A DNA stretch of 59,312 nt, counting the filler, from Sphacelaria rigidula (Eukaryota): assembly GCA_964200075.2 (NCBI GenBank). It is 10 parts of 10 records of this genome, joined end to end, with 100 filler letters (N's around TTAATTAATTAA, not from the genome) between each part and the next. Parts side by side here need not be neighbours in the genome. Positions count along the whole stretch, not along the records: positions 23,767 to 29,607 come from CAXNAA020024042.1; 9 more parts are not named here. The stretch is one strand, 5' to 3'. Position 1 is the first letter of the stretch, and every line of letters starts with the position of its first letter. The notes below the pieces were generated by a model. It ran no database searches. It was not told the origin of the DNA and saw nothing but the letters and a program-made list of their open reading frames with translations. Shown in pieces: positions 1,831 through 54,096 of this stretch. The translations under genes and the position numbers were made by a program.

Positions 1831-1844
1831 GAGGGGGGGGGGGG

Positions 1845-2330
1845 TACTCATTTGTTGCTTGACTTAGTCGTTTGACCATTGATTACGCATCCCTTTCGAG
1901 ATGGAGCACCGTTCCTACTCCTATTAGAGACCCCTTCAATATTCCGGCGCTCATTACGCTTCTTCCATACATTACCCAAAACCTTGTACATAACTCATCC
2001 CCGTCCTGTTCCGCCGTCTGTGGCCACCATCCATCTCCTAGAATAACCATCGTTTTCTCGCTACTGTCTAATGCGTCAAACGATTCCATCGCACCTTCGT
2101 TTACGTCCCACATTTTCCCCTTTAGTACGTCTCGTTCCTCCTTATATAGTTTACATTCTGCCACTATACGACTTTTGCTCTCTTTGCTCTGCCACAGGGG
2201 CAACTGTCCATCTACTTTCCTCCTCCTTCCGACGACTGGTATATCTCTTTCTTCTTTCTCGCAGGTTCAGGTCCCCCACCCGAAATCGCAGTTTCAAAAT
2301 TTCGCCGCGTCCATTGGGCCGTGCAAATAT
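1845..2330 (-). mobile_element. 5'-truncated non-LTR retrotransposon (LINE) 3' end, frameshifted
   Basis: Minus-strand pieces read LKLRFRVGDLNLRERRKRYTS..., ESKSRIVAECKLYKEERDVL...LDSSEKTMVILGDGWWPQ. Colinear with the copy at 26037-26452. Flanked by the direct repeats TGTGA-G12 (1828-1844) and TGCGA-G11 (2330-2345). Confidence 0.8.
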
Positions 2331-5842: not shown

Positions 5843-5942
5843 NNNNNNNNNNNNNNNNNNNNNNNNNNNNNNNNNNNNNNNNNNNNTTAATTAATTAANN
5901 NNNNNNNNNNNNNNNNNNNNNNNNNNNNNNNNNNNNNNNNNN
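5843..5942. other. Artificial contig linker (first of nine)
   Basis: 44 N + TTAATTAATTAA + 44 N. Identical linkers at 11785-11884, 17726-17825, 23667-23766, 29608-29707, 35549-35648, 41490-41589, 47431-47530 and 53372-53471. All segments are 5841-5842 bp. Confidence 0.98.
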
Positions 5943-6375: not shown

Positions 6376-7697
6376 GATTTTACCAAAGTTGGAATATGCA
6401 GGAGGGGGAGGGGGGCGGGGCGTACTCAATTGTTGCTTGTCTTACTCGTTTGACCATTAACCGCGCACCCATTTCGCAGTAGATTTTACCGTCATTGGGC
6501 TACGAATTTCCATGGTTGATATTATTTCATTTGAGTGTGTACAACGAGAATCGGATGTTTAGTAGGGCTGGTATTCCCGGATGCTCCTCGCGTGCGCAGA
6601 ACGCGTTTTCGTCGAAATCGGCGTCACAGGCGCCGATTTAGGGTCTACCAAGGCCACACTTTGGCCAGGGGATCTGTGTACCGCCGTTGATGTTTCCATC
6701 ATGATGCATGCAGATATGAGTCGCCCCACACGCTGGTCCCGTTGCTTGAGACAAAAAAAAGTCCCACCCTTAAGTGTTCGCTCGGGGTTTGAGAGCAAGA
6801 ACTTGAAATTTCGAGACGAGGTGCACGGTAACCGTTCGAAATTCATCACTAGAGCAGTAGAATAGTTGTTTTCCCTTTTGTTTCTTGTTCTTTTGCATAA
6901 TCAAGTTCATTTGAATGGATTTCCGGGAAAAAGATTCGCCGATTTTTTGGAGTTTGGAAGAAAAAAAAATCAGAAAAAAAAAGAGAAATGGTTGTAGTGA
7001 TGACCTCCAAATTATTGTTACGTACGTACCTCTTCTCGAAATTTCATGTCCGAACTCTCAAGCCTCGAGCAAACAAAAAACGTGTAGAGAGTCCCAAGCG
7101 CGTGATAACCCTAAATTTACGCTTTTTTTTTTTGTAGATATTCTCCTCAATATATTTGTTTTGGCCGTAAGGTTCACACGGCGACGAGTGAGAAGCTGAA
7201 ATGGGTACCATTATCACTACCTTGATGTCAGCTACACGCCCACCATTTTTTTTCAGCGCAGTCGGACGGACACGCGTTCGTGTATCTGCTTGATTTTTGT
7301 TTCCAACTCGCCAGCATCAGGTTCCTCCACCAGGCCGTATTTCGGTATCCCATGACAGTGATGAATTATGAAACATGCAAGGTCGTGCTCTGTAGCGTAT
7401 ATCGGCTGAAAAATTGAGTATTTACAAAAGTATGAATGGAGGGATTGATTCCATCGGCAATTAAATGCCCTTCCGAACCACACCGGATATATCCGGAACA
7501 AGACTGGATACCCTGCTGGACCATACCGCAACGTTCCAGACCTTGGACAATATATGATCAGAAATGTGCAGCAATAGACAAGACATGTACTACGTAAAGT
7601 GTGGGCATATTGTGATTGTTGTCAGCGATAGAACAGTCGCAATAGGCTTATACTTTACGCCGTACATTTCTTGTCTATTGCAACTATTGACCATATA

Positions 7698-8895: not shown

Positions 8896-10960
8896 CTGCA
8901 GAAAGGGTCTGTCTGGTGTGTGGAGTGGGACCCTCTGTCGCCAAATCGCTTAGCCATCGGACCGAGCAGCAACGTGCCCTTCCACTTGTGGGACGTGGAG
9001 ACAGGGAAGATAACCTCCATCGCTAAGGTGCGCCGTTTTTTTTTCGCGTCGTGGAGAAGAGGGGTCATGAGGGGAGCAGCGTAATGTTTTTATTTCCCAA
9101 AGAGTTCTGAAGCTAGCTAGCTAGCTAGCTAGCTGCTGTTCAAGTGGGTCTACTGTAGTGCATTACACCATACGACGTCGCAGTTTTGTTCCCGGTCTTT
9201 GTGTCTGGCGGGAAGGTACCGGCTGATGGAGTGCGATCGGCGACCTTGTTGATGAGTGTGGGGGCGATGTGATTCCTTTGCTTCTCCGTAATTCGTCAAC
9301 ACTGTTGCCTCCGAAAGGATGCTTTTCCGATTTGTCACCCTCACGGAACAGCACGGCGGTGCACATCCTTAGCAGTAGCAAGATCCTGAGGAAAAAAGAA
9401 ATGAAAAAAATCGAGTGCCATTTTTCCATGTACATTCTCAGACATTGCTCATTGGCCCATGGATTATGTAGTGACTGCTACACACACTGTGCTGTGCTGG
9501 ATGTACTCGCCGCGAAGGTGCTAATGGGTCCTTTGTATCACCTCCCCCTGTTGATAGTGTTGCATGTTATGCTCATATTGTTCGAGGCTACTGTATATGA
9601 ACCTCAAACGTGTCCTCGAGCTCTGGATGCAGTGGAATATGGTACAAGCTATTTCATTTTAATACCTCCCCCCCCCCCCCCCCCCCCCCCCTTCGCCCCG
9701 TCGCCCCGTCGTTCCCTCTATCTCCGCTGCACCACACGCACACGGTCGCTCGTATCTGTTTTGTCTTGTCTGAAAAAGCTCACGAGCGATGTATTTTCTA
9801 TCGCCTATCTGTCTCAAGCCGCTCCCGGCGCGGGCTATACCCTCCTGTGTGGGTTGAGGAACGGGGCGGTCGTGCTCCTCGACTCCCGTATGCCGCAGGC
9901 AAGCCAACCCTTCTCAGGCGATCACTTTAGCGATGCAGCCGGCTCGGGCCACATCAATCCTGCGTCCAGCCTGTGGTCTGGAGCACCGGTCGGCCCGGGC
10001 GGTTGGGCTAGCAGCGCTCCAAACGTCGGCCGTAACAGCAGCCGATCGGGGTTCTCACTCCCAGGCAGCATCTTGGACAGACGCCACGCTAGAAGCGGCA
10101 GAAGCACCGTCGCCGCCATCGGGCAAAACGACTACACCGATGTTATGCCGGTAGCCATCCTCCCGACCTCAGTAGACCACATGCATGTTTTGCGTGACGG
10201 CAGACGTTGCCTCGTCCGGGACAGATCAGGCGGCCTCCAAATGTTCGACTTACGAGGCGGTTCGGGTGGCGGTTCGGGTGACGATGGCTGGGGACAGGCA
10301 CGAGGCAGCAGCGGGATAGCATCCAAATGCGGGATACGCCCACCATGCGGGGCACTCGTGAAGGTCTTCGTGCCGCCGGCCCCACGCAGGTGGGCGGGGA
10401 CTCCAGGAAAATTCGCTCTAGACCCTGGAGAGACGGTAGTCGCATCGCCAATTCCCCCCGCCACGCGCGGCCGCAGCGGCCGCAGCCGACGAGGAGGGTC
10501 AAATACTCCACACGTGCCATCGACAGTTGCGTCCGCGTGGGATCCGTTTGCCGGCCACAGTTCTGACAGCGATGAAATGCCCCTTCTGACGACCCACTAT
10601 GGCGGCGATAGTGATGACGACCGCGGCGGTGCGGCGGGCGGGAGCGGCCGCCGGAGGCCACGTGGTGCCGGGGCTAATTTCTTCTTTCCGCGTGAGGATT
10701 CCGAAGAATCGGGCTGGGACCGGTTGAGGATCTCGAGCGTGAGCTCGGGAGACGTAGTTTCTGACGTGGTCACGCCGTTTAAGAAGCTGTCGCTGGCACG
10801 CGGGACTTTGGGGGTGCGCGGGGCGACGGGGGTCGTCGGACAGAGTGGGTTTTGCCATGGGGATGTGGTGTTTCGAGGGATTGCGACGTGTCCCAGGCGC
10901 GACGCGCGTGTGCTGGTTGAAGCGGCGCTGTGGCCGGAGGAGGAAGAGGAGAAGCAGTGA
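8896..10960 (+). CDS. DCAF4: WD40-repeat protein, DCAF4/WDR21-like; last two exons 8896-9027 and 9779-10960 (5'-partial)
   Basis: Exon 8896-9027 (cag|...AAG|gtgcg) encodes LQKGSVWCVEWDPLSPNRLAIGPSSNVPFHLWDVETGKITSIAK. It joins in phase 0 to LTSDVFSIAY...LLCGLRNGAVVLLDSR...SVDHMHVLRDGRRCLVRDRSGGLQMFDLR, which parallels the DCAF4 SDV...NGCRSG..F.IDLR...SAV....L.D...L...D..G.I..WDLR pattern. Orthology is from recall, not a search. Confidence 0.72.
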
Positions 10961-11714: not shown

Positions 11715-11784
11715 CGCCGCGCCCCGGTGGTGTAATGGTCCGACTGTCGCCATTAGGGTGGAGAGAACGGGGGTTCGATTCCCG
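11715..11784 (+). mobile_element. tRNA-like head of SINE family A (cut by contig end)
   Basis: A box TGGTGTAATGG and B box GGTTCGATTCC. Two mismatches to 35481-35548; homologous to 44485-44555. Confidence 0.75.
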
Positions 11785-12014
11785 NNNNNNNNNNNNNNNN
11801 NNNNNNNNNNNNNNNNNNNNNNNNNNNNTTAATTAATTAANNNNNNNNNNNNNNNNNNNNNNNNNNNNNNNNNNNNNNNNNNNNGTGTGGGTGGGGGGGG
11901 GGGGGCGCGGGGGTACTCATAGGTTGCTTGCCTTAGTCGTTCGACCATTGACCACGCATCCCTTTCGAGACGGAGCAGCTTTTCTTCTGGGAGGGAGGGG
12001 AGGCAGGGGGACAT

Positions 12015-12701: not shown

Positions 12702-15700
12702 GCGGTAACGCCACCAGATGCCACTCTGCAGCCGTCGAGCGACGAGGCCTTTTGGGCCGCAGTAGCTGCGCAGCACGTAGCTGAGGGCTCCAACACCTCC
12801 TCGTGGAAACAGACGGAAGGGTCGAAATCCGCAGCATCGGGAGGAGGAAAGCGGGGTGGTGGGAAAGGGGCGGGTAGTGTCAACGACCACTGTGCTCTGT
12901 GCACGGACAAGAGCCCCGGGCGGTGGATAACTCGCTGTAAAGGCCCGGGCGGAGGGACGCGGCAGCAACCGTGTTCGGTGTGGGTGCACCCGGCGTGCGC
13001 TTGGCAGGTGTGATTTTTCAGGAGAGGGGGTTGGGGGGGGTTCCACAAGGACCAGGGATTTTTTGCACAGAAAGTACGCTTTTGGTAAAGCTTAGTAGAG
13101 TGCATGACATGCCTGGAGGAAAGTGATCGTAGCTCTTGAGAAAAAATATTGCAAGCATCATTGCGGTATGCTAAGGTGTCAACAATGACTTCACGTCTCT
13201 GGGCGACTGACAACAACCAAGCTATATCGATGAGGGCGGGGGCGTGCTCTTGCCTGTCATTTGATCATTGAGCGCTTATCCCTTTCAAGACGGAGTCGGG
13301 GGGGGGGGGCAGGTTCGAGTGGATCTATTCTGTTGTTTGCAACCAACATGCTCGGGTGCGTGCTGAGTCAAAAAGTATGTATATATAAACGCATTCTAAG
13401 GCATCGCCGTACGCCTGCCCGGTCCAATGTTTGTTGCGAGAGTTGGGCTTGTGAATAATTCATCGTGGTATACGTGCCTTGGTGGCAGGCGTTGTGTGTT
13501 GGAGGTGAGACGATGCGGGGCGTGTGTGTGTGTGTATGTGTGTGCTTTTTTTTTTTTTTTGAGAAAAGTAGCTGTGCGTAATACTCGTGCACACAGCGCG
13601 AACCGACTGCTCTGGAAACTCTCGGTGGTATTTCGTGTGTGTGTGTGTGTGGTAGACGATACAGCACTTTGGGCTCCCAGCAGTATTGCTGGCCCATGCA
13701 GAGTACGTGGTCATACCGTTCGGCCAGAACTGCACGCCAGTTGTGTATTTGTGGCGATTATACTCGTACATACCCCAGCCGGTGCTCCGTCTCGAAAGGG
13801 ATGCGTGGTCAATGGTCAAATAACTAAGGCAAGCAACAAATGAGTACGCCCCCCCCCCCATGTTTTTACCCATGTGCGCATAGAATGAAGAGTTCGCCAT
13901 GCGGTCCATCGCGGGATCGGCGGCTACGTCGGACAGCGGGTTTCGCCTACCCATGGTGTTTTTTGCCTGCCCGCAGCACGATAAGCCTGCCACGTACTGC
14001 TCCTGCAAGCGTGAGGAGAGGGAAGACGAGGAAGGACAGTGAGTGATGCTATTTCCCCCCGTGTTAATTGTTGTTATTTCTTTGTACCCGTCGCCAACTG
14101 GAGCTGCTCAGTCGGCGAGGATTGACGGAGGGCAGATTTTGAACGTGACTTCAATAACAGCTTGCGCCTGAGAGACTTTACCCTAGCTCTGAACTTCAGG
14201 GACTTACCCGCAATTAAACCTATATCTTGAAACGAGCGGCGGGGGGTGAGTTGAATTGGCAACTCTGTTTCCGAATGTTTATTTTTAGCAAAATCAGTAC
14301 GAGACTGCATGGAGCAAGGTCCACCGTGACTTCATCAACTCCCTCCCTCCCCGACGAGACTGTCACTTGGATCATGACCTTGGTTCGTTTCACAGTCAGT
14401 GAGACCCCCGCCAACCATAGAGGAGAGGACCAGCCAGAATGCAGTGAAAATTGCTTGTTGTCATAGCATGTCCATTCCACTGTACCGCTTAGTAGTCGTT
14501 GTCTCTTGCTTTAGACTCCGGGGTCGTCCCGAGGAAGAAGGCGGCGGGTTACAGCACGACGAAAAAAACTTTGCTGACAGTGCAGGTTCCCACAATAGTG
14601 CGGTCATGCGGGCGTCGCAAGGGCACCTCACCATGGATTATGACAATATATTACGCTGTCGAAAGTCTACTGCGTACAGTATGGAATCCATTGTATATTG
14701 TACAATAGACACAATAGCCGACACTGAACGCGGTACACTTTTTGACGATGTAATCTCTTGTCATCATCCAGGGTGTGAAATGCGCCCTCCCCACTTTTGT
14801 TGCGGCACTACTGCTGCACCATGCTTCCGTGAACCAAATGCTTTTTCATAGACTGTGATAAAAATAATCGCAACGCATTCACACGCGCGAACAGATCATG
14901 ATCCGTCTAAAAAATATTTTTTCTCAGTGTACTGATCAGGATCATTTGGCCCCTCTTTTGCATGTTTGCTCCTTACACCGCCGGACGCCGAGCACGCCGC
15001 GTATCGCAAAGGTTGCGTTTCGACTTATCTGAATCTGTGTTCACATATTTTGTGTTTTTGAACCAACGTCTACTTTGATTAGTTGTTTCAGACAGATGAT
15101 GATCTGTCCGACGTGTGAAAACACTTGTCAGTTGAGTATGACACGCTCTGAAATGCGACACACGGGAGTACGGTACACGGGACTTACAAGCGTATGTGTA
15201 TTAACAGGGAGAACTATATCGAGTGCGACAGCTGCAACGAGTGGTATCACTTCTCGTGCGAGGGCCTGGATGAGGCGGATGCGCCAGATAGCTACAGTTG
15301 CAAGCGCTGCCGAAAGCTGGCGGCCAAGGGACAGAAGGTTTCGGCCGGCGAGCGGCGCAGGAACAAGGCAAAGACGAACGAGTATATGAGTGAAATAGTG
15401 AGTTCGTGTGTTTTTTTACTTTTTATTTTATTTTATGCACAACTTGGGTACTGTTGTTGATGATAAAATCTCGGAATAAAAGAAAATTATGGAGAAGGTT
15501 GCGATCAGTCTCTCACTCGCAACGGGAGGGAGGAGCGGGGGCGGGGGCGGGGGGGGTAAGCATAGACTCGTCATTTTCCATTCTACACATTTTCCATGCT
15601 GAACATATGGGTATTATCAAGCGGAATATTTATTCTTGTTCACAAGAAGGGCATGTAACATGGAGACGTCTAGATATCATTCGTCATCTCCACGGAAACG

Positions 15701-17545: not shown

Positions 17546-17899
17546 CGTCATGAACAAAGGAGGGAGAAAACTCGTTACTAAGCAAGAGTAAACGTTGACA
17601 AAAATAAAGTAGAGGAGACCAAAGGAAGGAAGGAGAGAAAACAGACAGAAAAAGGCAGGCGAAAATCCAGTACCGATCCGTAACCTCCCCCCCCCCCCCC
17701 CCCCCCCCCCCACAACAAAAGCTGCNNNNNNNNNNNNNNNNNNNNNNNNNNNNNNNNNNNNNNNNNNNNTTAATTAATTAANNNNNNNNNNNNNNNNNNN
17801 NNNNNNNNNNNNNNNNNNNNNNNNNAGGGATGCGAGGTCAATGGTCTTATGACTATGGCATGCATGATCATGAGTACACCCCCCCTATCGCAGCATGAC

Positions 17900-18145
17900 T
17901 CGGTACACAAAGTTGGACTTAACGGTCGACGAGGGGAAGAGACCGCTGAACCCTTCTCGTGATAAAAGGTAAGGCAAGCATCGCAGAAGGGAGGTGGGGT
18001 ACTGGAACACGATAAGTAATACATAATAAATGTGCGTTGACCTTTCTCCTGTGTGACCCCGGCTGATGCGCCCATGTATATATATATATATATATATCGA
18101 AACGTGTAGACTGGCGTCCAGATAGATGGGATGGCAAAACACAGT
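17900..18145 (+). mobile_element. SINE family B, 3' two-thirds
   Basis: CGGTACACAAAGTTGGACTTAACGGTCGACGAGGGGAAG...GACTGGCGTCCAGATAGATGGGATGGCAAAACAC, colinear with the 17205-17545 copy. Confidence 0.72.
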
Positions 18146-18978: not shown

Positions 18979-19239
18979 GAGTCATGCTACGATGGGGGGA
19001 GGCGGGGAGATTTCAGGCTTTTCTTCCACGAAATTCACTTCAATCGCCGTCAAACGCAGCCAACAGTTGTTCGAACGCGCTTGCTCCCGATGAATAGTAC
19101 TCATTCATACTGCTTTGCACAGCTTTTACCCAAATTCGAGCGCACCGCGAGTGTTTTAGGCCGTTTGAGGCATGTTTGAGCACATTTTTTCGTGGAATCA
19201 AACACCCCCCCCCCCCACCCCCCCTATCGAGCATGGCTC
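18979..19239. mobile_element. MITE with GAG...CTC termini (Sola2-like), 261 bp
   Basis: Left end GAGTCATGCTACGATGGGGGG, right end CCCCCCTATCGAGCATGGCTC; flanks AGTA/ATTA. The same terminus occurs at 41452-41489, 47571-47607, 17881-17901 and about 50810-50828. Confidence 0.62.
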
Positions 19240-21396
19240 ATTATTGTTGACTGTTCTCGTCATATTGATGTTGGCTATGCTTGATAACTCATGACAGAGC
19301 AATGAGAGTACTTATTTGGAGCTCACATCCCCAGTCGTTTGTTCTGCTGGGAACCGCTTTCGAACGCAGAAATATCAAGAAATCGTAATGATTCTTCTCA
19401 CTTTCTAAAAAGATCGGCGCGATCGAATACACCCATCTTTTGGACTCAGTACAGTTCTCCGGTCCACAACAACTACACGTACCCGGTTAGGATCTGTTTA
19501 GAACCACTTTTGAACATGATACGAAGCAGCGTAATAGCCACTGGAGAAAAAAAAAAAAGGCAGATAGCTCGGCAGGGTTTGAAGAATAAAGGATTTCCGA
19601 TCAATAAATCCTTCGTTGACATCGAAACCATGAAATAACCGCCGTTTGTATTCTCTGCAAGCTTACGATCACATTTCGTCTTCCCACATCTATCTAATCC
19701 GTGGTTCATTATTATGATGTTGCAAAGGTTCAACGCGAATTCGACGCTCAACCACTCTTCGGAGGAGGCCGTATCCACCTTGGGTCCGAGAGGACAGTGG
19801 GCGGGGGAAGGGCACTACGGCCTAAAGCTCGTGGGAACGGCTCAGGCAAAAAGACGGGCACACATACGCGTCGTGTATATATATATATATATATAAGCAT
19901 GAGCATATGCTTTTGTTGAGTAGGAGAAGATAACATTTTGTCGTGAAAGAGGTGATTTCGGTGCGACGTTGTCTTTGTATTTATTTCACGCAGTGCGTCC
20001 GGACCGAACCAGTATCCCTTACTGTCATGACTACGCATTGAAAAAACACCGCAATCTGGCACCCACGTCTATTGGACAACACGAGCAGATGAGATCCGCC
20101 TCTGCATGCTACTTCACTTGTGCGTGATAACACGCGTGGCTGTTGCTAACTTGCTCCCGTTCTGCCCGGCGGTAGGGTGAACGGAGGTGTAGTGAGTGTC
20201 CCCGGTTTTGCATGGTATGCCATCCCTTCGGTCAATTTTCTGCATCCGAATATACCTCTGCATATGACTAAGGTGTTGAGGCTTGATACCGATTCTCGGT
20301 GATGTAAGTAGTGACGAGAGGAAAAACGACGCGATAGCGCTTCCGTTCTCCCAGATTCCCGCCGGCAAATTCGTGCCAAACCCGTGGAAATACCATGAAG
20401 GAAAAAGTACGTACCGCACTCTATATAGCTTGGGCTGTCACTCAGTGTAAAAAAATCGCGGTTCGTGCCCCCTTTTGCTTCCACTCCTTCCCAGCCTTCC
20501 TCCTGAAGGAGAAACCCCTATCGTCGTTCAGCTTTGCCATCGGGTGACATCGAGACGGGCCAATCCGTCATGGATCACTGTTCATATGCTCTTAACATCC
20601 GACCGTTTCAGGTCGTCATCACATGCGTTTTTCTACTCTTCATTCTCGCCGTTTTTATTTCTCTTTGACCAGGTCGAAAACTGTAACCGGTCCGCGTCCT
20701 GCTGCGATGTCTACGACGAATCGGCCGCATCGTGTGCAGAACAGCAAAACGACGGCGAGTTGTTGTACTCTTGCTCGGCCGGAGCTACCGCCCGACAGGT
20801 GCACGATCTCCGAAAAAACCACGTCCTGCAAAGGGTAGCTTGTTTATACGTGGTGTTGGATGCAGCAACTAGCTCGGTTTAAGGCATATGCTCTTGCGAG
20901 TCTTGACAGGATCTGCGTCTCAAAGTGGGGGTTCCCGGCATTCAGATTCCAAAGACAAAGAGTCCGAGTTGAATAGAGGAAATTGGCGTGTTCCCAAATC
21001 GGAAGCGCGCCCCACCAAGTGAGCGTGAGTTCATTTAACTCGTTTATACGTGTGTTGTCATACTCTTAGTGACCGATCAGTCAAGTGCGGAGCGGTGTTT
21101 GCGCCAGATTCCGGCATATGTCTAGACCATACTTGTACATAAAAGTCCTCCCTTAGTCCTTCCCTTAGTGCAAACGCACGCGCGGTGTTGGAACTTTGGC
21201 GAAACCATGTGAATAGCCTTCCAGTAGGTGTTTTTCCACACGCCGATTTGCTCTCGCCCTGCTTCACCCTCATCCGTCGAAATTCCGGCCGTCGCCATCA
21301 CACTTTTTCAAACGCCTGGGACACCTTCGTTGTGGCCCGTACGTACTTGTCGCCATTTCCCCACTGATGCCTCCCCAACGCTTCAGCGACAGAACG

Positions 21397-21471: not shown

Positions 21472-23766
21472 GGAATCCTTTCAGTGTACATTTGTGCGAA
21501 AGCGAACGCTCTCGGCTCATGTCTCCCGTAGGCGAACGCTCTTACAATCCACGAGTGAACATTTGCAATCCCCACTTGATCACCAAGGCTGCTATCGAGA
21601 AATAAAATCACTCGTGATCTCCGTGCCTCTCCGTCTCGAATAACCTTGACAGATGCGTGCCTTCAACACGGAGAAAACCTCCTCGCCTGTCTCTTCAGGA
21701 GCTGTCACGCCCTACATATATGCCGTCGAGGCTGGTTGGGGAGGAGACATATCTCACGCTTGCGGGCCGGCCTTACGACTCACCGCAAGCTATCCGGCTT
21801 CTGCCGGTGCGGCTTGGTACCCACGGGACGTGACCATCAGTGAGGTGAAAACTCACATGCAGTGTAGAGACCATTCTTCGACCCTTTTGCAAAGAGTAGT
21901 GCCACGGTAGGGGTGCCCTTTTCAATCTAAAAGTTTTCTGAGGCTGCACACTCAGGGCCATATATTTGTCATCGAGAGGCTCCTAGCTACAGCACAGAGC
22001 CCCAGAAAACAATTGTGCAGCCCTGCGGTGGTATTGCTCCGAAGTGGACAAAAGATCGGGATCTCACTAACATGAAGATCTTGATGTTTGGACTCATTAG
22101 CCTGAATGTTCAACCGTTCGTTTTTACTGAAATCAAGGACAAGAGGAGAAAAACATGAAAGCCGAATATACAGGTGTCGAGGCCAGTGGTTCCTTTTGGT
22201 AAATGACGACCAAGGTCCTCGTACAAAACTCGAGCCCCACATGACGATATCCTAAGATGGGCAAATCGACGGTAAGGTCGACGACCCGCCTTGTAAGGCC
22301 GGTAGAGTGCTCGCAAACATACCCGGTACTTAAAAGGGTCTCGCGGCTCCATCAAAAGCTTCTTGCAAGATTAACGTGAGGGGGACAATAGGAAGCGGCG
22401 GAGGAGCAAGTGGCATAACTGTAGAGACGAGTCGTCGAAACATTTTTTTCACATGTTTAAAGTGTCATTGCCGTATGCCCAGGCGTCAACTAACCGTCCA
22501 TTCATGGGTGAATGATAAACAAAAACAAACCGTTTTGCTGTTAAAAGGGCGAGAGCAGATGGCAGTACATTCCGCAGGCACAGGGAGTGTCCCTTCGAAA
22601 GGGGTTCGTAAACGTTGCAGCCGTTGGACAGACGAGATTCATTTTACCGCCTTTCATTGACTAAAAAACTGTGACAACGGACCACTGTACTTCACCAGTG
22701 AAAGACGATCGAACGGACAAAAAGAAAGCAAACACTATCAGTAGCGGTACATTTATTCGCCTATTTTCATGATATCATGCCCACAGCCACGGTTTGTCAC
22801 GCGTCGATTTCCTTCGCGGAGCAAAAGCCTCCCCGCCCCAGCCCTTCCCAAACTTGAGTATCCTCTATCTTCAGCAGTACCACTAACAAGTGCAGTGCAA
22901 CTCCACTCTTCCCCTCATCGTTTATGTAGCACCGAATCCTCCTCTCTTGTCAGTGATATCCTGTATCTCAGCAGTGTGCGTGAGACCTGCCCGCTATCAC
23001 GGATGTAGAGCAAAGTTTCATCGTTCTTCTTCAAGGGGCTCTTCACGACTTGGGGACAAACAGTATTTTTCCGCATCACGTGTGAATTTTATGAACACAC
23101 ACAATACATAGTACCATTCGGTCGTCGTCTGAGACCACAGAACCAGAATTGTCCATCCGGTATTACACACAAACGTGGCTCACCAAGGGTAAGCTGTTGG
23201 CGCTCACCTCTTTCTTGCCCAGATCTTCGTGCAATAACAACATAATACTAAAGCATGGGATCCTTCCCTTCGTGGGGTAACTAGTGACACCCACAGCTGC
23301 ATCCATTCCGTCTCCGACGGAGTCCTTCGGCCGGGAGTATGAAGCTTCAGGTGTATCTGATGGCACGGTTTACACTACACAACTACCTCATATTACACGA
23401 GTAGCAGCCAAAAACATACTTGCAGATCAAACCAATGGCTGCAGAGACGTCAAGCACGAAAATAGAAACGCACACAATTATTTCTCCATGTCCGTGTTTC
23501 AAACATACAAACCCTGATGTCGCCGCTTTACCCTTTTCACCTCACCCTGGAAGTCGCACACCGAGGACCTCCGCCCCCCCCCCCCCCCCCCCCGCGCCCC
23601 CCCCCCCCCCCCCCCCCCACCCCCCCCCCCCCCTCCCTCTACGCCCCCCACCCCCGCCCTCCCCCCNNNNNNNNNNNNNNNNNNNNNNNNNNNNNNNNNN
23701 NNNNNNNNNNTTAATTAATTAANNNNNNNNNNNNNNNNNNNNNNNNNNNNNNNNNNNNNNNNNNNN

Positions 23767-23834
23767 AATCGAACCCCCCAACTCAACCATCAGAAGGTTA
23801 CGAGGTTACCAACTGAGCCACCGGGGCGACCGGC
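23767..23834 (-). mobile_element. tRNA-like head of SINE family B (cut by contig end)
   Basis: Reverse complement GCCGGTCGCCCCGGTGGCTCAGTTGGTAACCTCGTAACCTTCTGATGGTTGAGTTGGGGGGTTCGATT, matching 57120-57185. Confidence 0.75.
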
Positions 23835-23976: not shown

Positions 23977-26900
23977 CGGTGCCGACCAATAGCCATGTCC
24001 GAAGTCGAGAAGCAATTGGTTGCTATAGAAATGGTGAGAGCATCCAAGACTGCACCCGTGGCTGCTTCCACTGCCACTCCTGCTGCCCAGCGCACGGGTG
24101 CGGCCGTGCCACCAGCCGATGCCCTAGCACCTGCTGTTGTACGGGCTGACGCTTCCAACAGGTACGCCGTAGGGCTGTCTGTAGACTGTAGACCCCGATG
24201 TAAAGGATAAATCTACTGTCTATATTCCGAGCATGAGCATACGTTGAAATTCATGTGTGATGTACATGCATACGTGAGTGCAACCGGTATACCCGAGTGG
24301 CTTGATCCGAACCCTGTGTTCTTGTTCCCGAAGTATGCACCTTTACGAACGGTGTTGATATCGTAGTTTCAGATCGAAGCAATTGCTCTTCGCGCCGGAG
24401 AGACTTGGCGGAACGAAGCCTCCATGCTTAGTAGCGATAGCCAAAATCCAGGCATCCCTTCCATCACATTCCCCTCCTCGACATCATGATTCGTACTTGG
24501 GAGTGCGCCACTTGAGTTCTTGCTTTTGATACCGGCACGGATTCTGCCCAGCAATATTCCTACCTGCATTTGCAACTGTTCTCTCTCGAAGTTTGGTTGT
24601 CACAGAACCTCCGAGCAGAACAGGTTATGTTCTGTGTACTGGTTGATGTATGGGGAGACACACATTCTCCCGTTTCTGCCCGGGGGTACTATCGTAGCAC
24701 GAACGTTTGTAACCCACAATTGCGTTTTCTACCACTGTGGGTCTGAACATCTGTTCATGTTCAGCAGAACGCCACGGGAAGCTTCTGTTTTTCACCGATC
24801 TCACTGGTGAGCGGTGAAGCAATTACCTTCTATATTCTCCCTTTTGTGCTTCAGTACTATCTATCCCTGTGCACGCGCAATTGGCCCTATATTCTGTGAC
24901 ACTAGTTCACTGGGCGGCGAAGGCTTGTTTTCCGAGCGCGAGAGGGACACGATGCGCGGCTGTTTGATAGTGTTGTACGAAGCGGACGACGAACACGTGT
25001 TCTGGAGAACAATGCTTTCTGGTCAGTTCAACGGTATCAATGTCGACGCCGTTCCGGCCGGGGTGCCGCGTGACTTGGGACTGGTGTGGAAACGCCTGGG
25101 GCTACGATGGTACAGGTGCGTAGCATTGCGTGATTATCATCGTGAATTCAATGGACCAGGGGCAGGTTTGGGTCCCGTGTTCGAGCCAAGGTTGACATAG
25201 AATATGTGCTAGGACTGCATTAGGGTTTCCCCTCAGAGTGGCGTAGAGGTACAGGGCTGGGTTGAGGGCTTACACTAGGGCTAGCGTTAGGGTTTTTGCG
25301 GCTCGACTCTTGGAGCATCCATTCCTCACCGGAAGCTTTACAGGTCAAAGGTATATTGGCTTCATCGTGTCTGCTTCCAACTGAAGAAATCGTACAAAGG
25401 ATGCTGTGGTTCAACCTTATCGCACGTATGTTCGAAGAAACGTTTCGGAGTTCATGCCTGCGACCACGTACGTGCTGCAGCATGTGCACTTTGTACCGCA
25501 GCCACTCTCCAGTAATGTACAGGCTCTGAATTGGCCCTGAAAGCGAGTGGTCCAAGCAAGCAGGTATGCTCGAAGCGTGGCCTTGCGAAATTTTGAAGCA
25601 GCATTCCACTTCCATTGGTTCGGGTCTGACTTTCCTCAGGACCGTTCGAGAGTGCGTCGGCGATGTAAGGTGGGTGCTCGCCATAGCTAGAAGCCGCGAT
25701 AGCACGAATATCTGCAGCAACGCTCCAACCCTCGCCTACAAGCTGTCTAACCTCTTCGAGGCCACATTGAGCTCCCGCTATCTCCTTTTCGGGTGAGTAA
25801 TATTGACGGGACCCAGGGTACCTCCCGCTCGATCTACTCATTTTTGTTTTTGTTTTCTCGTAGAAAAGTGTACGTGTAGCCGTTTCGACCGTCCTCCCTC
25901 TAAAGGAGCATCAAATACGCCCGATCTTAGAAAACATCCACATGACCGAAGCCAGTTCGAAGGGTACAGAATGCATAATTACGTTACAATCCGTCCCCGT
26001 CGGCGCGTCCCCCTTCCCTCCCCCCTCCTAGCTGTTCAAGAGATTTACAAGTAGTCGTGTAGAGGAGGAAATGGATGCACAGAACTGCCACTGTGGCAAA
26101 GCAATAGAGAGCAGAAGTCATATAGTTGCGGGATGTGAACTATACAAGGAGGAACGGGATGTGCTAGAGGGGGACATGCGGGATGTGAACGATTGTGGCA
26201 TGGAATCGTTTGATGCATTATACAGTAGCGAGAGAACAATGGTTATACTCGGAGATAGATGGTGGCCAGAGACGGCGAAACAGGACGGAAATAAGACGGG
26301 TAAAACGTTTTGTGCAATGTATGGCAGAAAGGTAATGAGCGCCGGGATGTTGGAGGTGTCTCTGTCAGGAGTAGGAACGGTGCTCCGTCTCGAAAGAGGT
26401 GCGTGGTCAATGGCCAAACGACTAAGGCAAGCAACAAATGAGTACGCCCTCCCCCCCCTCCTAGCTGTTATTAAAAGTCGCTGCTTCGACGCTCGTTTTG
26501 CTTGACTCCACCACCGCCGCCACTCATACTGTCAGCATCGTACCCGAGGCACCGGTGGCTCCAGCAAAACGGAGGGTGAGAATCCGCACGGAAGCCGAAC
26601 TCGACCATGAGGCTAAGGCAAAGAAACCGACTATTAGTACTTGCGATGACGTGTTGGCGATGAGGGAGGACGTGCCGGAAGCCACGAGTGCAGCTGCCTC
26701 CTCCTCAAAAGCCGGCGGAAGCGACAGAAACAACATCGACCGGGTGCAGGTGGCCAGTGACCCTGCACGGCAGGTACCACTGGAGCCGCTGTCACTGCTG
26801 CAACTGCCGGAAGAGGATCGTGAAATGCAATGGTACCAAGATCTGGAGCAGCAGCAGTTGTTTGAATATCTGCATCGGGAGCAGCAGGAGCGGCAGCGGA

Positions 26901-29438: not shown

Positions 29439-29806
29439 GGCGTTCTTCTTTTCCACACGGACCCGTCGAGTACGAGACGACGAAGCGTTGCATGGGCTCG
29501 GAGAGAGAGACAGAGAGACAGAGGGGGGGGCAGGGGAGGAGGGGGGGGGGGGGTACTTGTTGATCATGACAGTGTATCCGCGGAGAAAAGTGGGGAGTTT
29601 TTTTTCTNNNNNNNNNNNNNNNNNNNNNNNNNNNNNNNNNNNNNNNNNNNNTTAATTAATTAANNNNNNNNNNNNNNNNNNNNNNNNNNNNNNNNNNNNN
29701 NNNNNNNGGGATGCGTGGTCGACGGTCAAACCGCCATGGCAAGAAACAAATGAGTACACCCCCTGCCCCCCCCCCCACCCCGGTGGCCTCCACTAACCAA
29801 CCATAC

Positions 29807-32800
29807 CTTCTGGAGATCCTGCAGCGTCTCTATCGGCAGTTCCTCCCAGCGGGCACTTCCAGCTCCCTCCCCCGCATTCCCCGCCCTCCCATCGTCATCC
29901 TCCGTCTCTTCTCCCTCATTTTCGTCGTCCTCTTCACCACCTCTTTCTCCGCCGCCGCACAAAAACGCCACGGTGGACTCGACCACGCCAAGACTAACCG
30001 GCAGCATGCGTAGCAACCTCGCAACACGCTCATCCTTGATGGCTTTCAGCTCCCGGGAAGATAGAGGCTTGTGCGGCGGCAGCGGTGCCCCTTTCTCCCG
30101 CTTCAAGACCTCATCCTCGGTCTCTCCGTTTTTTTTCTCCTCCACGCCACCCCCACCGCCGCTGCTCCCCTCAGTATCCCCACGTCCGACTGTTGCTGCC
30201 TTCACTGCAGCCATTTCTGCAGCGACGCCTATTGAAGGATCAATGCCCGCGGGCGCCATCGGACCCCTCGCCTTCTCCCGGGCCCCGGGTTCGGGTTCGG
30301 AGGGTGATCCTGAAGGATGTCCCCCGGCTGCGGCTGCCGCCGTCGCTGTGGCCGACGAAGACTTGGGCAACAGCAGCGATAAGCTTTCGTCCAAAAGAAT
30401 GCGGGCTTCGCCGGCGGCGCATCTCACCGCGAACGCCACGAACGTCCCTTTTTTTCTTTTGCTATTTCTCGGCCGTGTACGATCCGCACCCGTCCCACCC
30501 GCTTTCATGATGTCATTTTCTCCAGACTGCGCCCTCCCGTCCTCCTCCACGGCCCACTCTTGCCCCACAGCGCGCAGAAGCAACGCTAGGAGCGCGAGCG
30601 CCGAATCTCGGCGTTCATCGCCGGCCGCGCCATGCATCGCTTGCAGTAATCCTTCGCGCAGCGCCGCCGGAAATGCCCCCCGTTTGGTCCACGACCCCAG
30701 CGGCGGCGACAACGTCATCTGCTGCCCCACACCGCTTGCTCCGCCGCTCCAGCTACCCGACGAAGCGTTATCACTACCGCGATTTGCGTCGTCTGATGCC
30801 GCCACAGCAGTTCTGTCTTGTAACAGTGCTAACGATGTCCCGTCTCCATCCTGCAGGGCCGCCCACCGCAGCACCATGTCCATGAACGCAAACTTGGCCG
30901 GTGTAGGGTCATCCCGGAAGGCCTCCGCAACCGCTGTCAGCTGCCGCTGTCCGAGGCACTGCCCATTCGAGGCCTCCAGCGCTCGCCCGACAAACGCGAA
31001 AGCTAGAGTGTCCACGCGCTCTGCTAGTTGTGCTGTTGTCGCACCCTCAGGTTCTGTTGTCCCCGTGGCCGCCGCTACACTTGCCCCCCCTGCCGCTGCT
31101 GTACCCATCCCGTTTGCTTGAGCCCCTTTCTCCTCACCAGTGTCTTGCTTCTTACCGGTGTCAGGGCTGCTGCTGCGGTGGTCGCCGCCGTTCGGAAGGA
31201 CACGTGCCGTCGCCGTCACCGCCGCCGCCGCAAGATTTCTCTCTCTGCTGGAGGCCACAAGGCGGCTGACGACCGCTGGGGCGGCACCGGCCCTCAGCAG
31301 GCGCTCCATGCCACCCGGCGTGCCTGCGAGGGCTTGAGTGCACGCGAGGGCGTCGCACAGCGCTTGCGTGTCTGTTACGGTAGACGATGCCGCGCGGAGA
31401 GTGCGGACGAGAGCTGGCGCGACTGACACAAATCGCGGAACCTGTTTTGAGGGGTTGTCGTTGTTGCTGATGTTGGTGGTGATAGTTTGATATATGTGTT
31501 TTGATGCGAACGCACCAACTCAGCAACAAAAGGTCCGCAAAGCGATTGTGTAAAGGGTGAATTGATGGGTTTCGAGCTGCATCTATCGAAACAGCAACTA
31601 AGAAACGGCAGAGTGTCTGTTCCCAATCGAATTGCGAAGTCAGGGAAGTGTTCACAGCTCTTTCTCTACACAACACGAACGTGAAGGCTCTACTCCACAA
31701 CCTGATGTACCCTAGTTCCGCATTTCGTTCCAGCTGGGGAAAGTGCATTACAGCAGGATTTTTCTTTTGAGACGCCTGCCGTCCGTAGCTGACACGGGGA
31801 TCGTCTGCGGCAACCGAGACTTTCTGGACAAGCGACAACTGGCTCACAAGGTAGACCACCTCAACCCCACTTCAAAATAAGCTCGCTACGTATACATCAC
31901 AGCCAATTGCGCGGTATTTCGCAGTACACTTTCTACACCCTCACTCCTTGTTTGGAAATATAGAACAACAGCTACGGGCGTGCCATTCCAGATGATTTGT
32001 GTGGAGGCACTCTATATTCAGTAGAACCTGTCCGGTAACCCGGGACGAAGTCATTAGTATGGTTCCACAACGCTGTGGGTAATCGTGTCATTGCATCATG
32101 TTAATGCCTTCACCTGCCCCTGTGCACCAATCTACCACCTAAATACATACGCATTACACAGGTGAGACGAAGGCTGCGTCAATTTTTGTATTTGTTTGCC
32201 TACAAGAAAACAACGTATCTACTACCGCACACCATGTTATGGGGCACAGCAGATATCGGAGTTTGCTGCGCTCTCCCTTCACTGCATACAAACGAGTGTA
32301 CGAGTAAAGTTCATCGTTATGCACGCCAGCGAAACTATCGTTCCCACGGGGGGTTTGAGTGCCCGGCACGAGTGAGCGCTTCATGCGGTGTCGTGTGCTT
32401 CGTGTTCGTGTTCTGGTTGGGAGGCAAAACTGCCACAAATGCCGCACTGGATCATGGCGTGGCAGTAGAAATGCCCATCCGAAAACAGATTTTTTTCATC
32501 TATCGGCACAAACAAAGCTACAGCATCACCCCACATGAGAGCACCACTGATCACCATCGTTAGCCACCGGGGCTCGGCAATTCTTCGTTCATACTGAGAG
32601 GTACGACACACACCACGGTCTGTTTGTCCGTTACATCAACATCCCGCAACCCCGCGCACCCCCAACCCTCTAACTTCGCACCGCCCGACCGCAACACATT
32701 CAATTACCAATCGCAGATACCGGGTATTTACGGCCAAGGTATAGCAGACGTAGATTACGCGATTTCCTTACCAGAGTCTCGTCCTGAAAAAATGCAGCTA

Positions 32801-33224
32801 GAACACCCAGCGCAATGTGCTGATACACAGACAGCCCCTCCATCCCGGCGCCCCCTTCGAGAGTCTTCCCGCTGGTGCTATCACCTGCAGTCTTCAAGAG
32901 CCGGTGTACGAACGCCGTGCCAACGGCGTCGCAAATTCGTCGCACTTGTGATTCTCTCGCTGTGTTACCGGTAGGTGGCATCACCGTTGAAGTACTTGAG
33001 GCGGTGAGGGCGGGGACGTGCTTGGTGACCATGACTAGTCCGGCGAACTTGTGCTCGTCCGAGCCACCCTTGAGGAGGGTGAGGCACTGCGCAAGAATTT
33101 TGTTGCTGTTGTTATTCCTGTCGGCGTTGCTACTGTCGTCCGACGAGACAGCAGAAGCGATATGATCGGGAAGAGGGGGGGAAGGCTTCATTGATTCTGT
33201 CGTTGTGGCAGTGGCAGTGGCCAT
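29807..33224 (-). CDS. NCDN: Neurochondrin-family protein; exon 1 33224-32772, exon 2 31441-29807 (3'-partial)
   Basis: LAQCLTLLKGGSDEHKFAGLVMVTK...ICDAVGTAFVHRLLKT...IALGVLAAFFQDETL is the neurochondrin N-terminal signature. Phase-0 splice (|gtaag...acag|) to VPRFVSVAPALV...; later RDSALALLALLLRAVGQEW and FAVRCAAGEARILLDE. Exon 2 ends AAG|gtatgg. Confidence 0.88.
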
Positions 33225-33579
33225 CAGGCCTTAGTGTGCTAGCAATGAGTTGTACCATCTGTGCGGGCAGTCCACCCGTAGTGCTGTAGATTTCGTATTT
33301 TTCAGACCCGCGGTTCGAGGCTTCACTCCATATTGTTCGAGGCTGGAAAATGACCACGCTTGGATGCCAAAGCGGACGGCATCAGAGTGCACACAGCCTG
33401 GATCAAACCGCGGATCGTTGCCCACGTTGAGTCTTCAAAACTCCTCCCTCACTGCAGAGACTTGACGCTGTTGTGTGTGGCCTGGGCAAACGAACAGAAG
33501 TAAGTAAAGGTAGAGTAAAGTACCATAAAGTTGCATAGCTGATAGCGAGCGCAGCGCAGCCAACACTGAAAGTACCGAC

Positions 33580-35480: not shown

Positions 35481-35548
35481 CGCCGCGCCCCGGTGGTGTA
35501 ATGGTCCGACTGTCGCCATTAGGGTGGACAGAACGGGGGTTCGACTCC
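35481..35548 (+). mobile_element. tRNA-like head of SINE family A (cut by contig end)
   Basis: Near-identical to 11715-11784. Confidence 0.75.
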
Positions 35549-41451: not shown

Positions 41452-41489
41452 GAGTCATCCTACGATAGGGGGGGGGGTATTTGGTTGCA
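41452..41489 (+). mobile_element. GAG-type MITE terminus at contig end
   Basis: GAGTCATCCTACGATAGGGGGGGGGGTATTTGGTTGCA is the reverse complement of 47571-47607 apart from G-run length. Confidence 0.7.
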
Positions 41490-47048: not shown

Positions 47049-47607
47049 CGCATGTTAGTGCCGGAGGTAGTGACGATTTGTTCCTGGGGACGCATACCGC
47101 GACAGCTGGCACAACCGCCACTGCTGCCCTGGATGCCCGTTCAGGTATACTCTTTGGTTGGTTGATCGGTTGGTTGATTGATTGTCGCATATCAACTGAT
47201 TACCTAGGGATCTACCTGTAGTCACCATACAGACGTGCCCAATGTAGATGAAACGCGAACAATTGCGACAGGAAGCTCGAGAAAACCTCAAATTGTAAAT
47301 AACGCAGCTGGGGGAGGGGAGGGGAGGGGAGGGGAGGGGAGGGGGGGGGGGGTGTACTTTTTTGTTGTTTTTCTTGGTCATTTTATCCTTGTCTATGCAT
47401 TCCTGTCGAGACGGGGCTGGGGGGGGGGGGNNNNNNNNNNNNNNNNNNNNNNNNNNNNNNNNNNNNNNNNNNNNTTAATTAATTAANNNNNNNNNNNNNN
47501 NNNNNNNNNNNNNNNNNNNNNNNNNNNNNNGTGGAAGGATGTCTGACAAACCTATGAGCCTCGTTTTTCGTGCAACCAAATACCCCCCCCCTATCGTAGG
47601 ATGACTC

Positions 47608-48160
47608 ACGAAGGAGACCAAACTCGACAATCTTTGATGAAGTCAGGGGTCGCCCCCGAGTAGGATACGCGTTGTGTTGCTGCGGTACATGCCAACGTTA
47701 CCTAATCTATCGATGAATCATCTCTCCCTATGAAGAGATAGGCCCACGCCCACATCTTTTCATCGCGTTCTACAAGGCACGCAACGGATAACAAAATATA
47801 ACAACCTCGAAGGGAGTCTCATTCGTATATGAGGCTTGCCTTCGCCAATCGCCGGCAAAGCAGCAAGCATAGTATTTATACTCTTGGATGGGCCTCGTGA
47901 GAGCCTCATACACGAAGCAGATCCAAGCGTGGCAATCTTTGATCAAGTCAGAGGCCGCCCCCGAATAGGAAATGCGTTGTTGCTACGGTACACGCCAATA
48001 CAACCTAACCTATAGATGAATCACCTTGCCCTACGGAGAAATAAGCCGACATATTTTCATCGCCTTCTGCAAGGCACGCAACGGATATCAAAATATAAAG
48101 ACCTCGAAGGGAGTCCCCTTCGTATATGAGGCTCGCCATCGCCAGTCGCCGGCGAGGCAA
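47608..48160 (+). repeat. Diverged tandem duplication, period ~304 bp
   Basis: Units start at about 47608 and 47912 (ACGAAG.AGA...CAATCTTTGAT.AAGTCAG...CAAGGCACGCAACGGATA.CAAAATATA...CCTCGAAGGGAGTC...TTCGTATATGAGGCT). Confidence 0.88.
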
Positions 48161-52279: not shown

Positions 52280-53510
52280 GAAACATAATGTATTGTCCAG
52301 GGTGTACAATTTTCGAAAAATTGGCGTCCGGGAGGGACGGGGAAGGGGGGGGGGCTCTGTGTCCGAATTCTTTCTCTCGACAGGCCCTTGATAAACCCTG
52401 AACTTTCAAGCATTATTTGCCAGTACAATACGCAGTACATGTTTTTACAATGGAAACTATTGTCCAGAATGTGGATTGCTGGCCCAGCACGTACCTGTTT
52501 TCCAAATTACCCGTCTTGTGGTTGCTAATGGGGAAGAATTCGCTGTCCCGCGCAGAGGATGTATTCTCTCGTCTCAGCGAAGGCTCTCTCTCTCGAGTGG
52601 CCACTTGTATGAGGTGGGGTGACGGTAAGTCAGCTGTGTTTCATTCGTCGCGTATTTCGTAGACGATGTACCTGACCTCGAACAACGTCTTTTCCCCTCG
52701 ATCCTTTCCTCCTCTTGCGCTGTGTTCAACCACATTTCTCCTGTAAACAGTGGCGCTAAATCGTTTTCGGACGGGGCACACGGAGCGGACCGAGCCTGGC
52801 GCGTGGTGTTGCTATACATCTGTTTTGAGATATATTTTCGAAATTGACATTTGTCAAGTAGTGGTTGAGCAGCATAAATATTCATCGTGCTGCCGTCCCG
52901 CGGGTTCGATTCATGCATGTCATCTGCCCGGGATGTAGTGGGGCAAGGGGACCGACGCGTGACACACCTGGTATTGCACAGATTGTACCTCAATTTCGTA
53001 GCCCTCCGGCTTTCGTGGGTTGACGGCGAGGGGGGGTGGTTGTGTTGTGTATTCCTCTTCGATATCAAGATGCATGGGAGGGACTTTAACACTCCTTGTT
53101 TTTTTTTCCTGTCGAAGATCAAGATGGGGTGGGGGGTGTAGAACTCATGGTTGATGGCCACGCTATTTAGTACGTATATATATATATATATATATGGCAG
53201 AGGCGTCGCACACCACGGTTCTCAACGGTTTCAATGGGTCTACGGGATGGTCTTCGTACGGGTTGCGAATTGTTGGCAGTATTATTCATAGTATCGTACT
53301 GAGGCCGGCGCTTAGTCCTTTTCTTTGAGGGGGGGGGGGGGGGCGTCCTCTTTTGTTGCTTGCCTTAGTCANNNNNNNNNNNNNNNNNNNNNNNNNNNNN
53401 NNNNNNNNNNNNNNNTTAATTAATTAANNNNNNNNNNNNNNNNNNNNNNNNNNNNNNNNNNNNNNNNNNNNGAGAGAGGGGGGTTGAGGAGCCGACGGGG
53501 GGGGTGGGGG

Positions 53511-53563
<53 letters not shown>

Positions 53564-54096
53564 TGGAGGTACTCATTTGTTGCTTGTCTTGAGTCATTTG
53601 GCCAATGCGTGTGGGAAGGTAGGGGAGGAGAGGGGCTGCGCAATCAAAGGAGCGAGCGGGCGAATGAGAGAGGGGGGGAGAAACCCGTGGATACGACCAT
53701 ACACGCACGAAGACCTTAACTTAAGCGTCTACTGACCGGGCAAAGAATGGTGCGCTCCATCAGTCCGATATTGCAACACACACACACATACACCGCCAGT
53801 CTTCCTCCCGACAATGCCCTCCCTGTGCCCTCCCCTCCCCCCTTACCTCCCCAAAATACGGACTGGATGCAGAAACTACGTCGCCAGCACCTGATGGATG
53901 ATGACAAACTACAGACCAACCAGACTACAGCGCAAAAAGGAAGAGCAGTAATACGCAACACACAACACACAACCACCATGCTGGCGTCGTGGCGTGTTCC
54001 ATTACGCATATACAGCACTCGAACGACCCGAGCGTACGGCAAACACATGCAGAAACAAATTAAACAATGCACAACGACGCAAAAAAAAAAACATAC

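Follow-up and report, generated by a model that had tools for sequence, protein, structure and literature searches.

In a 59,312-base stretch of Sphacelaria rigidula DNA (GCA_964200075.2; hereafter the window), the interval 26037-26446 (+) is a dead copy, truncated at its 5' end, of an abundant long interspersed nuclear element (LINE) of brown algae. Copies of its family run from a stop codon through a minimal trailer directly into a homopolymer of C's, lie behind C-rich 5' flanks, have target-site duplications (TSDs) that begin with C's, and occur in tandem and nested arrangements. LINE tails are usually poly(A) or short A-rich repeats. Polyadenylation cannot produce a tail of C's, whose source must therefore be either the template or the target, and we think it probable that this C-ended LINE lands in C-runs by pairing a G-tract of the target with a C-tract in its own RNA. 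The C-ended habit is real and unusual, and was noted, without explanation, by the curators of Ectocarpus transposons. To that record the present analysis adds the occurrence of the trait in a distant brown alga, the placement of the stop codon 5 bases from the C's, a 3' module that overlaps the end of the coding sequence, and initial evidence bearing on whether the C's originate in the tail or in the target.

Results

Anatomy of the truncated copy

The 410-bp copy lies in the fifth piece of the window between exact 17-bp direct repeats (CCCCCCTCCTAGCTGTT) at 26020-26036 (+) and 26453-26469 (+), a pairing for which the chance expectation in a 900-bp stretch is about 2e-5 by our own arithmetic. 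The 5' repeat begins with C6, is preceded by CCCT, and directly precedes the first LINE-homologous base. At the other end, a C-rich tail, CCCTCC, occupies 26447-26452 (+) outside the 17-bp repeat, and its GCCCTCCCC form is also found in other copies. If a length difference of 2 C's is allowed, the repeat could grow to CCCT-C6/8-TCCTAGCTGTT, and the border between tail and TSD is therefore ambiguous by 4-6 bases.

What remains of the element is the C-terminal part of a single open reading frame (ORF), including a CCHC knuckle (CHCGKAIESRSHIVAGC). The end of the copy reads ...AGCAACAAA TGA GTACG, then CCCTCCCCCCCC, and poly(A) is absent. In a tblastn search with the full-length relative P0153, residues 1228-1360 span 26041-26438 in two frames and the match stops on an AAA codon at 26436-26438, so that the TGA at 26439-26441 (+) is the true stop codon and the 3' untranslated region (UTR) is 5 bases long. 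P0153, P0154, P0155, and P0156 all end ...KASNK, with the tblastn match ending one codon before the stop, and at the DNA level AAA-TGA-GTACG-Cn is likewise found in two intact copies, L001 and L007. An earlier, sequence-only reading had described a 5'-truncated LINE that ends AACAAA-TGA-GTACG, has almost no 3' UTR, runs straight into C's, and is flanked by a 17-bp direct repeat, and each part of that description holds. Because the copy carries a frameshift somewhere between 26307 and 26364, its longest open frame seems to run on into the C's (...QATNEYALPP); we rejected ...QATNEY as a genuine ORF end, since the full-length proteins show ...KASNK and then a stop. The copy is 82% identical to another at 1844-2249 (-), and its protein relatives number 1107 at E<=0.001.

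C-runs at the 3' end of the family

A profile of the last 50 nt, built from 11 of the 12 window ends later found, recovered 12 LINE 3' ends in the window, and all 12 have at least 5 C's in the next 12 bases, compared with 1.2% of window positions; no end lacking C's was present among these 12. An unbiased subset comes from the 25-mer that the sequence-only reading had proposed to tabulate, which has 6 matches in the window at no more than 3 mismatches (0.00 expected), every one followed by a C-run. Exact-pattern scans of public contigs outside the window returned 7 loci, 2 of them (L004 and L005) chance matches, and the 5 true copies end GAGTAC(G) followed by C8, C10, CCTC8, C9TC9, or C13. C's thus follow the LINE end in all 17 DNA copies (12 in the window and 5 elsewhere) and A's in none. 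Among database ORF fragments that read through ...QATNEY, 14/17 show at least two consecutive prolines (CCN codons) within 6 residues.

Assembled contigs of four public runs (X1, X4, X5, and X6, from three studies) were aligned to 25600-26900. Depth over the unique flanks was 68, 31, 5, and about 2 in the four runs, and summed contig depth climbed toward the LINE 3' end, reaching 15.5 million in X1, for which 52,492 contigs aligned. Matches ended at 26449 and 26458 in 139 and 384 contigs of X1, 167 and 362 of X4, and 22 and 29 of X6, and at 26458 only in 87 of X5. Beyond these two positions the consensus continues with 13-27 C's and then with divergent letters (agreement of 0.40-0.50). Rather than continuing into a common sequence, copies diverge after the C's, and neither a shared 3' UTR nor poly(A) was found beyond them in the contigs of the four runs, so the continuation that the sequence-only reading had named as refuting did not appear. 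The proposal that the family ends in a C homopolymer without poly(A) is therefore supported by the window ends, the external copies, and the contigs alike.

One could ask whether poly-G noise in sequencing, or errors of assembly, produced the C-runs. Such runs do disturb assembly, as shown by several pieces of the window that break off in a C/G-run or at a LINE end, but an artifactual origin is very improbable: the runs are internal, with unique sequence and matching TSDs beyond them, contigs assembled from four sequencing runs (three studies) show them again, as do five contigs from other assemblies, and they are recorded in a curated library based on long reads (PMC12477816).

Domains, classification, and the 3' module

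Two full-length relatives, P0153 (1360 aa) and P0155 (1328 aa), consist of one ORF with Exo_endo_phos, RVT_1, and the CCHC knuckle in that order. The reverse transcriptase (RT) domain, RVT_1, is present in both (E 9.8e-31 in P0153), and Exo_endo_phos, the apurinic/apyrimidinic endonuclease domain, lies N-terminal to it at residues 170-392 of P0153 and 142-383 of P0155. The window copy retains only the part of the ORF downstream of the RT; all window copies are short, and no RT or endonuclease (EN) domain occurs among the 51 ORFs of 150 aa or longer in the window. Copies show 5' truncation, TSDs of variable length (17 and 13 bp), no long terminal repeats (LTRs), and contig depth that rises toward the 3' end. 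From the predicted domains of the full-length relatives and the anatomy of the copies, the element is classed as a non-LTR retrotransposon (LINE) of the apurinic/apyrimidinic endonuclease type.

The closest named protein relatives of the family are Ectocarpus proteins. One relative, the 1927-aa P0156 of Ectocarpus sp., is a chimeric gene model that joins a Gypsy-type pol with PF08719 to a LINE C terminus. Another, P0002, has 340 aa, and we take its C-terminal residues to be typical of translated sequencing adapter. A search of solved structures with the RT domain gave human ORF2p as the best match (E 6.6e-21), with L1 ORF2p and R2 at similar E-values; structure and Atlas searches were uninformative as to clade, the Atlas returning unnamed EN-RT clusters.

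More specific guidance comes from a study of Ectocarpus transposons (PMC12477816; 2025, Genome Biology), which, in the portion available to us, assigns LINEs to the CRE, RTE, and RTE-X clades. Its supplementary table describes RTEX-1a_Ec32 as "single EN-RT ORF; (C)n 3'" and RTEX-2_Ec32 as "(C)n termini/TSD," and enters "C-rich" in the TSD column for every RTE-X family. The nonautonomous RTEX-N1 and RTEX-N2 share their last 60-100 bp and "can be present in tandem," and nonautonomous families are annotated '60 bp 3' end 83% RTEX-1/RTEX-2'. In the same table RTE families end in (CAA)n and CRE families in (CA)n, and (C)n ends appear in no other manually curated Ectocarpus LINE row; the words "C-rich" and "homopolymer" are absent from the main text, where the trait is undiscussed. 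The window family has the features of the curated RTE-X description, namely, a single EN-RT ORF, a (C)n 3' end, a C-rich TSD, and a shared 3' module. The sequence-only reading, which had called the family a G/C mirror of L1 and knew of no described poly(C)-tailed LINE clade, was right about the anatomy, a C-homopolymer end with TSDs that start in C's. Its suggestion of novelty fails, as this table already lists RTE-X elements with (C)n ends and C-rich TSDs, and novelty is the one part that it had said a matching family would overturn.

The 3' module is a conserved terminal segment of ~70 nt at 26376-26446 (+) that overlaps the ORF end, as defined by an alignment of 11 window copies from different families. 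It is common to several LINE or LINE-dependent families, and summed contig depth jumps 8-16 fold there; we regard it as a putative RT recognition site. Many contigs run from 26447-26458 (the 3' end plus a few C's) straight into a copy that starts at 26376-26382, and these joints are nested or tandem insertions.

Target sites and 5' flanks

Three copies have clear TSDs: the 26037-26446 copy (C6TCCTAGCTGTT, 17 bp); a second, longer copy of the same family at 1844-2328 (-), with C11TC (13 bp, CCCCCCCCCCCTC), a 5' run of C11, and a 3' run of C12; and a 66-bp 3' fragment of a related family at 47341-47430 (-), with C12 on each side, whose C12 duplication is cut by a piece end. The 20 bases 5' of nine window copies contain a mean of 10.8 C's, compared with 5.1 in the window, a value not reached in any of 20,000 resamples; in the five copies whose discovery did not depend on C-runs, the counts for that interval are 11, 15, 8, 10, and 5 C's. 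These sites support the sequence-only reading that TSDs begin within a C-run, and they show 5' flanks rich in C. C-runs on both sides are clear in 4/9 window copies; in 2/9 the 5' flank is C-rich and interrupted, in 3/9 the C-run is weak or absent, and in contig L006 it is absent. In both clean TSD cases the run is preceded by CCCT, a hint from two sites that the bottom-strand nick would fall at Gn/AGGG. None of the contigs in the four runs joins 26036 to 26470 as an empty site would, which is no evidence either way.

Other copies, other repeats, and the host

The copies found in the window range from 66 to 485 bp and all share the 3' end. Short ones include a copy of about 69 bp at 13780-13859 (+) that ends GAGTACG plus C11; one at 11893-11990 (-) that ends GAGTAC plus CCCCGCGC13, with a C-rich 5' flank and a 3' flank cut by a piece end; one at 13233-13297 (-) with C12 directly at its 5' end; and one at 53497-53612 (-) with the longest tail seen, CTCCAT C49 T C7 A C8. 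An old copy at 6422-6490 (-) has the 9-mer GGTAAAATC at its 5' border and again 37 nt past GAGTAC, beyond a C-rich stretch. The two occurrences could reflect a TSD accompanied by a short 3' transduction; coincidence, which we estimate at about 0.015, is the other reading. Contigs L006 and L007, which the database assigns to metagenome-assembled genomes of bacteria (the title of one reads Sulfitobacter sp.), contain the brown-algal LINE and are likely misbinned host DNA.

Several other repeats occur in the window. A sequence resembling a transfer RNA (tRNA), with D-arm GGTGTAATGGT and T-arm GGGGGTTCGATTCC, is cut at three piece ends, at 11720-11784 (+), 35484-35548 (+), and 23767-23830 (-). Two of its copies are near-identical over about 70 nt, and ARAGORN called no tRNA in it; it may be the head of a tRNA-derived short interspersed nuclear element (SINE) or a repeated tRNA gene. 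At 17879-17901 (+), 19205-19240 (+), 41452-41477 (-), and 47583-47607 (+), a C-run is followed directly by TATCG(Y)AG(S)ATGACTC, once just after a LINE end. The same combination occurs in L002 and in an X4 contig, and in the X4 contig a variant, CTATCGTAGGAT, leads from the C-run straight into TTAGGG-like repeats. Examination of this motif as an inverted terminal repeat or SINE head gave no clear result; it could mark a constant 5' terminus of some other element, or else a target that is favored. Just downstream of a C9 run, at 47607-47862 and 47911-48159 (+), is a tandem pair of ~250-bp units that share 81% identity. Long C-runs with no recognizable LINE 3' end before them are found at 9668-9691 (+; C24), 17687-17711 (+; C25), 23574-23666 (+; C20GCGC22AC14), and 55080-55094 (-; C15).

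The window itself consists of ten pieces of ~5,842 bases joined by nine linkers of the form N44-TTAATTAATTAA-N44 (5843-5942, 11785-11884, etc.). It contains 47 C/G runs of 7 or more and 46 such A/T runs. Piece ends that sit in LINE 3' ends or C/G-runs include those at 11885, 17826, 29708, 47430, and 53371, as if the assembly broke at such places. A domain search of window ORFs identified a host ORF with a NAC domain at 53719-54990 (-) and a neurochondrin-like host gene with at least two exons at 29729-33230 (-). The long exon of the latter (29729-31519, -) has 46-48% identity with named Ectocarpus proteins, 37% with Discosporangium and Choristocarpus, and 56% with the best among other database records, and we therefore identify the host, from these protein identities, as a brown alga other than Ectocarpus.

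Discussion

A probable mechanism for C-ended insertion

The likeliest mechanism, in our judgment, is one in which the bottom-strand G-tract of the target pairs with a C-tract of the element RNA. The endonuclease, which would prefer G/C homopolymers, would nick the bottom strand within or at the edge of a G-tract; the G-tract would then pair with the C-tract located 3' of ...UGAGUAC(G) in the RNA and prime reverse transcription. As the C's do not come from polyadenylation, the RNA carries either the C's of its source locus, by read-through past GUACG, or none at all, and in this model the source copy would supply the C-tract, most likely because transcription reads through into it. Specific recognition would come from the ~70-nt conserved 3' module, so that nonautonomous elements with that module would be copied too. 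A top-strand cut 13-17 bp downstream would yield a TSD starting with the C-run, and every insertion would thereby leave a C-run on both sides, each a new target, which would account for the nested and tandem copies. Specific recognition of the 3' end together with G:C pairing would correspond to the pattern of stringent-type LINEs with repeat tails, as far as the portion of PMC3747384 available to us describes it. A stronger claim can be made, that the C-run plays two parts, as the tail with which the RNA primes and as the site at which the element prefers to land, in a self-seeding, G:C-paired form of target-primed reverse transcription (TPRT) that has been kept across distant brown algae and drives nonautonomous partners. 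We advance it tentatively, as slightly more apt to fail than to hold.

Part of the evidence concerns the origin of the tail. The interrupted form GCCCTCCCC of the window copy is seen as YALPPP in three independent ORF fragments, P0004, P0097, and P0122, and L003 has GCCTC8. Long tails are also found where the upstream C-run is weak or missing (13848, 46058, and L006). Together, the recurring interruption and the long tails with few C's or none upstream are evidence for an RNA-borne part of the tail.

Several points weigh against the G:C-pairing model. Some of the copies in the flank analysis were found by way of their C-runs, which biases their selection. A TSD cannot be defined in 5/9 window copies (13848, 11913, 13233, 46058, and 53569), a sixth (6422) shares a displaced 9-mer and not a clear TSD, and the 5' flank of L006 is not C-rich. 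The run data, those of X6 (which may derive from RNA) included, are assembled contigs, blind to transcript ends, and so contribute no RNA evidence. The predicted RNA fold of the 3' module amounts to one weak 6-bp hairpin with a GAAA loop and 1 compensatory pair, its single-sequence z-scores are -1.06, +1.02, -2.17, and +0.06, and neither structure prediction nor these scores yielded a supported RNA structure. By its features the window LINE matches the Ectocarpus RTE-X families, and its putative RTE-X membership is drawn from that published description and not from a tree. Finally, the 3' run exceeds the 5' run by just 2, 1, and 0 C's in the three measurable copies, so that the net tail is about as small as one would expect of a C-run derived wholly from the target.

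That last observation invites a target-only explanation, according to which the RNA itself lacks a C-tract, C/G homopolymers are selected by the endonuclease or through DNA binding, and all C's at the 3' junction are duplicated target; the element would then be homopolymer-specific, much as some LINEs are specific to microsatellites. The C-richness of the 5' flanks and the entry '(C)n termini/TSD' for RTEX-2 in the Ectocarpus table (PMC12477816) are in keeping with it. However, the interrupted tail (GCCCTC...) recurs in independent copies, tails of C11, C9, or C9TC9 stand behind just CCCC, CCC, or no C-run upstream, and one tail is as long as C49TC7AC8. A transcript would also be unable to end exactly at GUACG without downstream sequence, so that read-through C's would probably be in the RNA in any case. 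On balance we judge a purely target-derived run to be unlikely, though it deserves to be taken seriously.

Tails span C7 to CTCCAT-C49-T-C7-A-C8, and variation in length from 7 to about 65 might suggest instead that the RT adds G's to the nicked DNA end before engaging the RNA, making the C-run anew at each insertion. Variable length fits the other models too, and untemplated addition explains neither the C-runs in 5' TSD copies and the C-rich 5' flanks nor the interruptions that recur at fixed places; we consider it decidedly improbable. Pairing between G-tract and RNA C-tract is thus the reading that we carry forward.

Significance

The C-ended trait has so far been a supplementary-table remark for Ectocarpus (PMC12477816), and its occurrence in a distant brown alga suggests an old, stable trait of the lineage. 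A C-ended LINE would explain the abundance of C/G homopolymers in these genomes, as well as the breaks that short-read assemblies suffer there. Such a family also offers a clean natural test of how far pairing between the RNA end and nicked DNA decides insertion sites. Were self-seeding, G:C-paired TPRT true, the family would amount to a natural experiment in which tail-to-target pairing, and not poly(A) as such, sets the insertion sites of such LINEs.

We found no paper that analyzes a C-tailed LINE in a search for which the bracketed spelling "poly(C)" was unsearchable and subscription journals and Repbase reports lay outside coverage. Remarks on 3' tails were absent from the RTE-X literature found and from the Saccharina paper, in the portions available, and the accessible parts of two papers from the poly-C and non-LTR literature (PMC5381506 and PMC9942856) mention no C-tailed LINE. 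Viral contigs gave 0 matches.

Comparison with known systems

The nearest counterparts are RTEX-1_Ec32, RTEX-2_Ec32, and RTEX-N1/N2_Ec32, which resemble the window family in their EN-RT ORF, (C)n ends, C-rich TSDs, shared 3' module, and tandem copies. They belong to a different host, the C terminus of the window copy is 46% identical to Ectocarpus P0156, and the likeness is one of description and not of consensus alignment. Ectocarpus RTE-1/2_Ec32, with (CAA)n, and CRE-1_Ec32, with (CA)n, are likewise brown-algal LINEs with non-A repeat ends; they differ in the repeat, no C-rich TSD is noted for them, and CRE has the order RT-EN.

Among stringent-type LINEs with repeat tails, as presented in the available portion of PMC3747384, the I factor ends in (TAA)n and eel UnaL2 in (TGTAA)n. 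Like the window family, both combine a templated, non-A 3' repeat with a conserved 3' module common to SINE-like partners. In the window family, by contrast, the repeat unit is a single C and the TSDs start in the same repeat, a feature unreported for those elements in that portion of the source (PMC3747384).

The likeness to mammalian L1 extends to 5' truncation, variable TSDs that start with the tail base, insertion into older tails, the mobilization of short partners, and a homologous RT. L1 carries a poly(A) tail, nicks at TTTT/AA, and leaves TSDs that start with A's. Unlike L1, the window family has a homopolymer of C in place of A, a 5-base 3' UTR with no AATAAA, and one ORF rather than two, and its conserved 3' module points to template recognition of a specific, not a relaxed, kind.

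LINEs specific to microsatellites, reportedly described by Kojima and Fujiwara in 2004, include what we take to be Waldo, Mino, Kibi, Koshi, and Dong, and presumably belong to a different clade. They have the same simple repeat on both sides of an insertion, as some of the window copies do (4/9 clearly), and, like the window family, a target that resembles the element's own 3' end. What sets the window family apart from them is that its target is a genome-wide homopolymer, a large share of which the family has apparently created.

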